This document shows, piece by piece, positions 4,639 through 7,473 of a DNA stretch of 24,460 bases (its first letter is position 1; each line of letters opens with the position of its first letter). The DNA lies in the IMG/VR virus record IMGVR_UViG_3300031992_000020; one strand, given 5' to 3'. Source of the DNA: a virus. Taxonomy: Duplodnaviria > Heunggongvirae > Uroviricota > Caudoviricetes. The position numbers and the translations under genes were made by a program. Under the pieces are notes generated by a model. The model was not told where the DNA came from. It ran no database searches and saw nothing but the letters and a program-made list of their open reading frames with translations.

Positions 4639-4647
4639 ATAAAAGAG

Positions 4648-4720
4648 TGGAGCTGACGCGAATCGAACGCGCTACATCCTGCTTGCAAGGCAGGTGCTCT
4701 ACCAATTGAGCTACAGCCCC
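4648..4720 (-). tRNA. tRNA-Ala(TGC)
   Basis: GGGGCTG/CAGCTCC acceptor with G3:U70; CT TGC AA loop. Confidence 0.95.
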
Positions 4721-5104: not shown

Positions 5105-5371
5105 TTATTCAGTGTAGACCAAAAATTTGTCACCATAGGTCAAACCGCACTCGCGCATCACAATGCGATAGAACAGCTCGTTCTCAATATCATAGTCGAG
5201 AGTCATTGAATCTTCGTCATCCGGAACATAGGCTTCAACCACAATATCATCCCGGTCGGTCAGTGAACAGTTGATTGCATAAGCAATATCATTCGGATCA
5301 GTATGGATCTGATTTGCAATTTCCTTAGCAATCTCATGCAACCACACCATTTTCAAATTTTCAATCCGCAT
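5105..5371 (-). CDS. Hypothetical acidic protein, 88 aa
   Basis: GAGAGGAG RBS; own promoter at 5404-5432; ends TAA. Confidence 0.8.
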   Translation of the reverse strand: MRIENLKMVWLHEIAKEIANQIHTDPNDIAYAINCSLTDRDDIVVEAYVPDDEDSMTLDYDIENELFYRIVMRECGLTYGDKFLVYTE

Positions 5372-5441: not shown

Positions 5442-5448
5442 AAGGAAG

Positions 5449-5522
5449 TCGGGCACCTGGGATTCGAACCCAGACTCACTGGTTTATAAGACCAGCGCAC
5501 TAACCGACTGTGCTAGTGCCCG
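5449..5522 (-). tRNA. tRNA-Ile(TAT)
   Basis: CGGGCAC/GTGCCCG acceptor; CTGGT-CT TAT AA-ACCAG; A73; no encoded CCA. Confidence 0.88.
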
Positions 5523-5523
5523 A

Positions 5524-5572
5524 TGGTGGAGCCAGGAGGTGCCGCCCCTCCCCAAAGATACTGTCAAGCCCC
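5524..5572 (-). ncRNA. 49-nt tRNA-Ala/tmRNA-TLD-like minihelix RNA with no anticodon arm
   Basis: GGGGCTT-GACAGTATCTTTGG-GGAGG GGCGGCA CCTCC-TGGCTCC-A-CCA: Ala-type acceptor with G3:U70, A73 and CCA, plus a T-arm-like hairpin. One-nucleotide spacers to the tmRNA and tRNA-Ile. Confidence 0.6.
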
Positions 5573-5573
5573 A

Positions 5574-5931
5574 TGGTGGAGACGAGGGGAATTGAACCCC
5601 TGTCCGAACTACAACCAGCATCAAGAATTACTTACGCGATAGCCATTTTTACGTGTGGCGCACAAGGGATGATCCGTAGATCAAATTTTCCACCACTTAC
5701 TTTTTACCAGCAGCCGGAGAAGTAAGAAACTGCGGCGTATGTCTCCTGTATTCTATGATCCGCAAGCATTTACCCTTGGAGACACTGGGATGCTGTTTAG
5801 GAGTCTCAGCCTAATTAGGCAGCGAGACGATCTTCGAAATAGTTGTCAGTTATTGTTTTTCGGCCCATAAGGCGGTACCGATACCCGCGATCTTGATACC
5901 TATTATAACCCGTCGAAACCAAAACGTCCCC
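5574..5931 (-). ncRNA. ssrA: tmRNA (one-piece), tag (A)DNYFEDRLAA
   Basis: 5' GGGGACGTTTTGGTTTCGACGGG, 3' GGGGTTCAATTCCCCTCGTCTCCACCA, G3:U; ATAACT before resume codon GAC (5847); tag ORF ends LAA-TAA (5815); 358 nt. Confidence 0.95.
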
Positions 5932-6040
5932 ATAAAACACCCTCTTCGCAGTATTTGGTGAGAACGTTTTTTACAAGGTATCTCTCACAGGCCCTGTTAG
6001 AGTTTTACTCCTATCCGGCAACTGCGTTCTTCCCTTGAAG

Positions 6041-6823: not shown

Positions 6824-7174
6824 TTATATGCTTCTTAGTGTACACTTCAATGTTTTTATTTTATAACGAGTTCGTCCATTTTTCCCTTTGCGTTTTACAA
6901 TAGGATTCCCATATTTATCACGTTTAACTCTGCGGCAAGTAACAGTGATAATCTCTCCTATTGATGTTGGAGTGATATGAAAAGTGGTGTCACCACCAAT
7001 TGCCCCAGAATATCCATCCGCACCAACTTCGTGACACCACGTAACGTATTTATCATATTCCTCTTGCGTTAAACCCCAAAATTGACCATATACTATATCA
7101 TCAGTTGATCTTGGAGTCAAATCCAAATCTGGAATCTCAGCACTCCAACCGTTTGGAAGCTGAGTTATTTTCAC
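6824..7174 (-). CDS. Hypothetical protein, 116 aa
   Basis: GTGA start/stop overlap with the upstream gene; ends TAA. Confidence 0.75.
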   Translation of the reverse strand: MKITQLPNGWSAEIPDLDLTPRSTDDIVYGQFWGLTQEEYDKYVTWCHEVGADGYSGAIGGDTTFHITPTSIGEIITVTCRRVKRDKYGNPIVKRKGKNGRTRYKIKTLKCTLRSI

Positions 7175-7473
7175 AGGTCAAGCTCCTTCATAAGGCGTTC
7201 AAGCGTCGCCTTTTCATCAGCATCCATCGCCACTGGATTTGATGCCTGCGCCGCAGGAGCTTCGGCAGGATCATCAAAATTTAGATCCCCACCATTCCCA
7301 TTAAATACGACCGGTGTCTTTGGGCAAGTCATACTGACCGCAATCTGCACGACTTCTCCATTTTCTTTACTATTGAAATAATACTTTTTATCTTGTTCAC
7401 CAAGATAATCCGCACCAACAGCTGCGGCAAAACGCTTAATCAATGCCGCCTTTGCTTCATTCCCTTTTGCCAT
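7171..7473 (-). CDS. Hypothetical protein, 100 aa
   Basis: AAAGGA RBS; own promoter at 7505-7533. Confidence 0.8.
   Translation of the reverse strand: MAKGNEAKAALIKRFAAAVGADYLGEQDKKYYFNSKENGEVVQIAVSMTCPKTPVVFNGNGGDLNFDDPAEAPAAQASNPVAMDADEKATLERLMKELDL

Follow-up and report, generated by a model that had tools for sequence, protein, structure and literature searches.

A 49-nt tRNA-shaped element between the tmRNA and tRNA-Ile genes of a rumen phage, with relatives in the anticodon loops of phage tRNA genes

The tmRNA/tRNA-Ile junction and the 49-nt element

We analyzed a stretch of 24,460 nt from a virus of the class Caudoviricetes (IMG/VR record IMGVR_UViG_3300031992_000020), hereafter the window, in which a 49-nt tRNA-shaped minihelix element (5524-5572, minus strand) was identified from its sequence, its folds, a covariance model (R1), and homologs. 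The upstream neighbor of the element is a phage tmRNA gene with the tag DNYFEDRLAA (5574-5931, minus strand; ARAGORN, and Rfam with 110.9 bits), and its downstream neighbor is tRNA-Ile(UAU) (5448-5522, minus strand; ARAGORN and Rfam), a gene that coincides with a 75-nt conversion patch. A single U at position -1 (5573, minus strand) is the only spacer between the CCA of the tmRNA and the first base of the element, and one T (5523) separates the element from tRNA-Ile(UAU). An earlier note on this DNA had placed the element 1 nt from the tmRNA CCA and 1 nt from tRNA-Ile, a placement suited to release by normal processing, and the ARAGORN and Rfam calls confirmed it. The element itself was called by neither ARAGORN nor Rfam in the window.

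Read on the minus strand, the element comprises GGGGCUU, a 14-nt linker, the hairpin GGAGG-GGCGGCA-CCUCC, a U, GGCUCC, A, and CCA. The acceptor pairs are G1-C72, G2-C71, G3·U70, G4-C69, C5-G68, and U6·G67, with U7 opposite U66; the 5' strand of the acceptor, GGGGCU (nt 1-6 of the element; 5567-5572, minus strand), pairs with 5528-5533, and the 3' strand, GGCUCC, is followed by A73 (5527) and an encoded CCA (5524-5526), these parts together occupying 5524-5533 (minus strand). The T-arm-like hairpin (5534-5552, minus strand) has a 6-bp stem (5547-5552 with 5534-5539) and a 7-nt loop, GGCGGCA (5540-5546). Remnants of a D arm or an anticodon arm are not recognizable, and the alignment of all copies (A2) has a single-stranded linker of 14 nt (5553-5566, minus strand) in place of the D arm, anticodon arm, and variable loop. 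The minimum free energy (MFE) fold of the element alone stacks a 6-bp acceptor on a 6-bp hairpin (one extra G·U), giving a 12-bp stack that resembles the top half of a tRNA, and the same 6+6 bp MFE fold is kept inside 168 nt of precursor context, which suggests that the element folds autonomously. Sequence and fold thus bear out the earlier description of a 49-nt minus-strand RNA made of an acceptor and a hairpin, with a linker replacing the D and anticodon arms. The reading of the hairpin as a T arm stood only in part: the hairpin is stacked on the acceptor as proposed, but its loop, GGCGGCA or GGCAGCA in all copies, is not the T-loop of a tmRNA or tRNA, and the canonical T arm (GGUUCRANUCC) is absent from the element. 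The alanine identity elements G3·U70 and A73 and the encoded CCA are present by direct reading, as had been claimed, and with G3·U70 in the context of G1-C72, G2-C71, and G4-C69, followed by A73 and a 3' CCA, the element agrees with the sequence criteria for an AlaRS minihelix.

The folding energy of the element is no better than that of shuffled sequences (z = 0.13), and stability was not used as evidence. The generic shape of an acceptor, a hairpin, and NCCA occurs about 0.39 times per shuffled window, and the shape with G3·U70 and A73 about 0.003 times, a figure in which the exact abutment to both neighbors is not counted. The element was found unchanged in a second assembly (L003) and in DNA contigs spanning it from two independent sheep samples, and no DNA contig skipping it was found in the two sheep DNA runs. 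No match to the exact 49-mer was found in IMG/VR, and BLAST searches of a phage collection with the region and with the 49-mer returned only unrelated tRNA matches or 18-nt chance matches.

The only sequence that the element shares with the adjacent tmRNA is CUCCACCA, and beyond the acceptor it has no similarity to tRNA-Ala of the window or of L001, a close relative of the window. The position of the tRNA-Ala(UGC) gene is itself variable: in the window (4647-4720, minus strand) its neighbors are Lys(CUU) and Val, in L001 (L001:14071-14148), where it has an encoded CCA and a different backbone, it follows Val, and it is absent from L004, L007, and L018.

Homologous copies inside tRNA genes

Pattern scans identified three homologs of the element, all of 47 nt and all on other rumen-phage contigs. 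A first pattern, with GGGGC, the loop, and GCUCCACCA fixed and the stems and linker free, yielded 1 true homolog (L034) among 16 metagenome matches, and a second pattern yielded 2 (L050 and L041) among 22 viral-contig matches. Each of the three copies splits an anticodon between nt 34 and 35, in tRNA-Lys(UUU) at L034:128-174 and L050:30-76 and in tRNA-Ile(UAU) at L041:6451-6497. The L034 copy lies within a 120-nt Rfam tRNA match (56 bits), and its removal in silico leaves a perfect 73-nt tRNA-Lys(UUU); an ARAGORN excision test on L041 likewise gave a perfect tRNA-Ile(UAU), again with the junction at 34/35. The L050 copy has the same Lys anticodon context in a different tRNA-Lys backbone, the host gene being cut by the contig end. 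An exact empty site was found in L123, whose uninterrupted tRNA-Lys(UUU) matches both L034 exons contiguously. The anticodon stem of the interrupted L034 gene differs from that of L123 and is fully paired, as expected of a still-working tRNA.

The window copy is not inside a tRNA gene; it is intergenic, between tmRNA and tRNA-Ile, and is the single intergenic case (n = 1) among the four known copies, its donor arrangement not having been found. On the sequences at hand, we read it as the first intergenic relative seen of mini-introns that split anticodons. The earlier note had proposed a search of phage genomes for homologs beside ssrA, and they turned up instead inside the anticodon loops of tRNA-Lys(UUU) and tRNA-Ile(UAU). 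Because the homologs interrupt anticodon loops, the family is intron-like and mobile and not a tag-less tRNA-like domain of tmRNA; that earlier proposal is further contradicted by the lack of an Rfam or ARAGORN match to the element and by a similarity to tmRNA limited to the one shared sequence given above.

The remaining pattern matches were rejected as chance. L017, 15 of the 16 metagenome matches, and 20 of the 22 viral matches were GC-rich, with an unpaired hairpin and no tRNA context, and the same properties were seen in L059-L061 and in all 54 matches from prokaryote genomes. A search of related loci totaling about 290 kb with the covariance model R1 added no copies to the four known. 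A GC-rich viral contig carries a 44-nt GGGGCUUG...GGCUCCACCA element (L046:11229-11272) with a hairpin of the canonical tmRNA/tRNA T-arm type (GCGGGUUCGAUUCCCGC); it could be a fragment of a tmRNA end or the remnant of an attachment site.

Conservation was analyzed in alignment A2, which holds the four sequences (window, L034, L050, and L041) at a mean column identity of 88%; the R1 score is 66.8 bits for the window copy and 73.6-76.9 bits for the intronic copies. Covariation of the acceptor and T-stem had been named as a check, and it was found in the hairpin: all 12 pairs form in all 4 copies (100% of cells paired), with compensatory double changes in 4 of the 6 hairpin pairs and an invariant loop-closing G-C. 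The observed covariation values were reached by 1 of 500 shuffles, and slid controls fell to 29-67% paired. A single register shift could account for three of the four double changes, which distinguish the window copy from the remaining three; the G-C to A-U double change in L041 is independent. The acceptor, including G3·U70, and the ACCA are invariant in all four copies (0 of 16 columns variable, against 16 of 33 elsewhere; Fisher p = 3e-4). In the linker, which measures 12 nt in the intronic copies and carries a 2-nt insertion in the window copy, G8, AG, and CUUU are conserved, and a T directly precedes the element in all four contexts.

These homologs bear on the possibility, which the earlier note had itself raised, that the element is unconstrained junk, either a tRNA-Ala in decay or a duplicated tmRNA (ssrA) that has suffered an internal deletion, with no conserved homologs. 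Its acceptor does resemble the acceptor ends of tRNA-Ala and tmRNA, and the tRNA-Ala gene moves or is missing among relatives. The covarying homologs, however, lie in three contigs with different hosts and keep every pair through compensatory changes, the hairpin is unlike the T arms of tmRNA or tRNA-Ala, and the insertion is a clean 50-nt indel; decay or duplication is on this evidence barely credible.

A second mini-intron family was identified in L123, where the anticodon of a tRNA-Leu gene (L123:1118-1249) is interrupted by a 47-nt insert of unrelated sequence (about 1154-1200). In this insert, the acceptor has 7 bp (CGUGGGU/GCCUACG) and is joined by a 12-nt linker to a 5-bp stem that carries the loop GUCAUCA; the sequence ends in ACCA. 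Both families have the architecture 7/12/5/7/5/7+ACCA, and the loops of both fit GNCRNCA. The acceptor of the L123 insert has U3-A70 and is not of the alanine type, and the class feature is therefore the shape of a top half plus ACCA, not alanine identity. With a second, unrelated family of the same architecture and a non-alanine acceptor, the proposed roles as a decoy or alanine donor lose weight.

Both families bear on a stand-alone function of the RNA, the idea put forward in the earlier note, according to which the minihelix, set free at the intergenic site or out of tRNA introns, would be charged by AlaRS and serve, as an anticodon-less alanyl-RNA, as a decoy for EF-Tu, SmpB, or tRNA-sensing defenses, or as an alanine donor for non-ribosomal transferases. 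Francklyn and Schimmel reportedly showed in 1989 that AlaRS charges synthetic minihelices through G3·U70, and the full alanine identity set is invariant in the four copies here, when half of the other columns vary; the hairpin is also kept by compensatory changes, the intergenic copy included. The invariant alanine-type acceptor could therefore mean more than a processing handle. Excision alone, however, needs the same features, the L123 mini-intron with U3-A70 makes alanine identity no property of the class, and the element is absent from four sister lineages, all of which leaves a stand-alone function unlikely in our view.

Insertion, homing endonucleases, and the conversion patch

Relatives of the window, collected through a neighboring 463-aa ORF, have the common order Thr - tmRNA - Ile(UAU) - Lys(CUU) onward and differ at the tmRNA/tRNA-Ile junction. 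The junction reads CCA-TAT-tRNA-Ile in L001 and L018 and CCA-T-tRNA-Ile in L004, and a cassette of ~840 nt with a GIY-YIG endonuclease gene lies between tmRNA and tRNA-Ile in L007-L009 and L011; the same cassette precedes tRNA-Ile in L010, for which Rfam made no tmRNA call. The 49-mer is present only in the window and L003 and is absent from four other sampled lineages. What was inserted is a clean indel of 50 nt, and the 9-nt direct repeat that flanks it, CTCCACCAT, by direct reading has its left copy in the tmRNA 3' end plus T (5573-5581, minus strand) and its right copy in the element 3' end plus T (5523-5531, minus strand); the repeat is possibly microhomology that was used during insertion. 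The comparison of junctions points to the element as a recent insertion in the window lineage.

Other differences were observed around this junction. At L007:8236-8700, the tmRNA gene of the GIY-YIG lineage ends in ...CUCCA without an encoded CCA, the cassette starting immediately after it, and at L010:5333-5690 the distance from Thr to the endonuclease is about 210 nt shorter. A tRNA-like gene with an insertion of ~31 nt in the D-loop region was identified in the tRNA-Thr/tmRNA interval (L008:8256-8360; also L012:7702-7808 and L014:3359-3465), with an Rfam score of 36.4 bits in L008 and an ARAGORN call only when the intron search was on.

The tRNA-Ile gene of the window is 99% identical to that of L007/L009 and 85% identical to that of L004. 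In the other compared segments that L004 shares, however, the window keeps to L004, at 86-100% identity for the ATPase gene, the tmRNA, the remaining tRNAs, and the spacers on either side; the window ORFs at 7171-7473, 6824-7174, and 5105-5371 are 77-82% identical to L004. The patch measures 75 nt and has exactly the extent of tRNA-Ile, with the 49-mer at its upstream edge. These identities show the window tRNA-Ile to be a gene-conversion patch from the GIY-YIG-bearing lineage, and the patch and the adjoining 49-mer have the look of co-conversion around an endonuclease break.

Free-standing GIY-YIG genes were also identified near the intronic copies in both contigs of sufficient length, at 0.7 kb from the interrupted tRNA in L034 and at 1.7 kb in L041; the encoded proteins share 45% identity with one another and about 30% with the L007 enzyme. 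The L034 gene (L034:858-1520) is open only with TAG as a sense codon (one TAG), which fits TAG=Q recoding. Another 11 loci (L119 and L121-L130) have a GIY-YIG gene of this subfamily ~87 nt downstream of a tRNA-Lys(UUU) gene that is uninterrupted. In 9 of them Ile(UAU)-Arg(UCU) immediately precedes the Lys gene, which in L119 follows Phe(GAA) and with which the L127 locus begins. From these 11 loci, the two tRNA species that host the element are the neighbors of that GIY-YIG endonuclease.

The 49-mer is probably a mini-intron copy at an ectopic, intergenic site, brought there by recombination linked to the endonuclease, and tRNA processing would remove it as a side effect. The copy would have arrived during the repair of a homing-endonuclease break at the tmRNA/tRNA-Ile junction, aided by the microhomology of CTCCACCAT, and it may persist because the insert splits the target site of the endonuclease, the target sites being placed here by gene positions only.

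The selective value of the insert may be seen separately, as a spacer selected for splitting the GIY-YIG recognition site at the tmRNA/tRNA-Ile junction, whose tRNA shape merely makes it harmless at the RNA level; this is compatible with an ectopic mini-intron copy. The GIY-YIG cassette occupies exactly the same junction in L007-L011, the conversion patch from the GIY-YIG lineage abuts the element, and the tRNA species hosting the intronic copies are the two found beside genes of the related GIY-YIG subfamily. A precedent is found in collaborative homing, where the psbA group I intron protects against the free-standing endonuclease F-CphI, which mobilizes the intron (PMC6083498). As in that system, an insert without an endonuclease of its own lies near a free-standing one and, judged from positions, would split its target (PMC6083498); unlike the psbA intron, the element is not self-splicing. 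Against selection as an anti-homing spacer, tRNA-Lys next to the endonuclease is uninterrupted in 11 loci, and no GIY-YIG homing-endonuclease gene was identified in the window, and we regard such selection as possible but on balance doubtful.

Predicted processing and relation to known systems

The features of a pre-tRNA that bacterial RNase P recognizes are a 12-bp acceptor/T stack, a purine at position 73, CCA, and a U at -1. Because the element mimics the 12-bp stack and has A73, CCA, and U at -1, RNase P is predicted to cut it at U(-1)/G1 (5573/5572). Transcribed inside the tRNA/tmRNA polycistron, the element would thereby be parted from the tmRNA, whose 3' end would be freed with a 1-nt tail; RNase P cleavage at +1 of tRNA-Ile would leave a 1-nt tail on the element, which 3' exonucleases would trim. 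As the window position needs no ligation, the insert would be harmless to both neighbors. In the intronic copies, the same 5' cut together with a cut after CCA would produce tRNA halves with a 3'-OH and a 5'-P, the substrate of an ATP-dependent RNA ligase, and a phage RNA ligase (phrog_968) could reseal them. The model is weakest at the 3' cut that the intronic copies would require directly after CCA; an encoded CCA inhibits many RNase Z enzymes. The efficiency of RNase P on the element is uncertain, since its loop, GGCGGCA, does not have the U54-A58 features of a true T-loop.

The free-standing copy between two RNase P substrates amounts to a natural experiment. With the same ends, U at -1, and ACCA whatever the surroundings, the element carries its own boundaries, and such context-independent boundaries are a prediction of the model of RNase P-defined excision. 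As it involves no ligation step, the transcript of the tmRNA 3' end, the element, and tRNA-Ile is the simplest test system for this model.

We searched related phage records for RNA-repair functions. The phrog_968 ligase (an OB domain, PF21189, with PF09414) was identified in the records of L041, L050, and L001, lying 1.2 kb upstream of the interrupted tRNA in L050. RtcB (PF01139) was not found in three related phage records, the Rnl1 profile (PF09511) had no match in three related phage records or in any control genome, and no RNA-repair domains were identified in the ten larger window ORFs scanned.

Parts of the window were contained in six sheep-gut metatranscriptome runs. RNA contigs from two of these runs cover the tmRNA body (5621-5912 and 5668-6026), and in several contigs of both RNA runs an Illumina adapter directly abuts 5576/5577, the tmRNA 3' terminus, which hints that tmRNA molecules end near this point and do not run into the element, contigs being poor evidence for RNA ends. 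No RNA contig covers 5528-5571 in the two sheep runs, where contigs cannot show 49-nt RNAs. Sheep-gut metatranscriptome runs of two studies contain long contigs of the tmRNA (5574-5931); in one run (X6), the flanking ORFs have a much lower depth than the tmRNA contig, a difference suggestive of expression in the rumen.

The textbook introns of bacterial and phage tRNA genes are group I ribozymes, and the group I intron of tRNA-Leu(UAA) sits between nt 34 and 35. The present family resembles group I tRNA introns in the 34/35 anticodon position, the association with homing endonucleases, and the existence of intron-less alleles, and differs from them in its size: a ribozyme core (P3-P9) takes about 200 nt or more, and 47-49 nt cannot hold one. 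For the element, Rfam gave no match to a family other than tRNA, either at E <= 1 on L034 or at the gathering score on the window. With no ribozyme core, excision of the element must rely on proteins or RNase P. On inspection, the inserts also differ from the endonuclease-spliced introns of archaea and eukaryotes, as they have no bulge-helix-bulge and lie at 34/35 rather than at the usual 37/38; at the junction of the intronic copies, a helix of 6-7 bp has 3 nt on its 5' side and 8 nt (ACCA and 4 loop nt) on its 3' side.

Other tRNA-like RNAs offer partial parallels. Like synthetic minihelix-Ala, the element has an acceptor stacked on a T hairpin, G3·U70, A73, and CCA; unlike it, the element is natural and genome-encoded, with a bulged linker of 12-14 nt and a non-canonical loop, and its charging is only predicted. 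Alanylation of the released RNA, if it occurs, would make it the first minihelix substrate of AlaRS found in nature. Processing modules of tRNA-like form are also found in mascRNA (the MALAT1 3' end) and in the small stable RNAs C and D of the T4 tRNA cluster. These share with the element the tRNA mimicry that recruits RNase P and 3' processing for the release of an RNA from a longer precursor and, for the T4 RNAs, the location in a phage tRNA cluster, but they have no sequence relation to it, are full cloverleaf-like or larger, and are not intron-related.

The tRNA genes of Lak megaphages contain conserved "enigmatic" introns, one of which "itself may encode a tRNA", with no mechanism proposed (Devoto et al. 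2019, PMC6784885). These introns are identical across cohorts, and intron-less alleles exist (PMC6784885). The Lak introns and the present family are alike in being short inserts in tRNA genes of gut or rumen phages with TAG recoding (PMC6784885); the Lak report defined no structural class, whereas the present family, compared with it by description only, is a 47-49-nt top half without D or anticodon arm, and the window copy, unlike the Lak introns, is not within a tRNA. A literature search on phage "tRNA-like intron" found only the Lak tRNA introns (PMC6784885) and no mechanistic description since. A 2014 review, which covers tRNA hosts, placed all phage introns known then in protein-coding genes (PMC3984707).

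A broader reading would join these elements of explanation, with the top half plus ACCA acting as a mobile "cut-here" cassette that borrows RNase P and serves either as an anticodon intron or as an intergenic spacer while releasing a functional, alanine-accepting RNA. Within a tRNA it would be a ribozyme-free intron whose exons are rejoined by the phage RNA ligase, between genes it would be a spacer that blocks a homing endonuclease, and the released anticodon-less RNA could be, for example, a decoy for tRNA-targeting host defenses, SmpB, or EF-Tu. Taken as a whole, this combination is improbable. For the ectopic mini-intron copy that we favor, the homing-endonuclease hot spot and the 75-nt patch connect the inserts with the gene-conversion events by which phage tRNA arrays are shaped.

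Further interrupted tRNA genes were identified among the related loci by an ARAGORN intron search. The calls, at L119:370-679, at L121:158-969 and 1391-1659, and at L131:1608-2611, comprise putative tRNA-Leu(UAA) genes with inserts of 225-921 nt, the insert in L131 spanning an HNH_3 ORF, and a putative suppressor-type tRNA(CUA) with a 177-nt insert. These putative long inserts may be group I or other introns. At about 2.5 kb downstream of the GIY-YIG gene, three of the related-phage tRNA arrays (L121:8061-9135, L122:8064-9138, and L123:7348-8428) also have adjacent genes for an AAA_33/KTI12-type kinase and a Metallophos phosphoesterase, a Pnkp-like pair for the healing of RNA ends.
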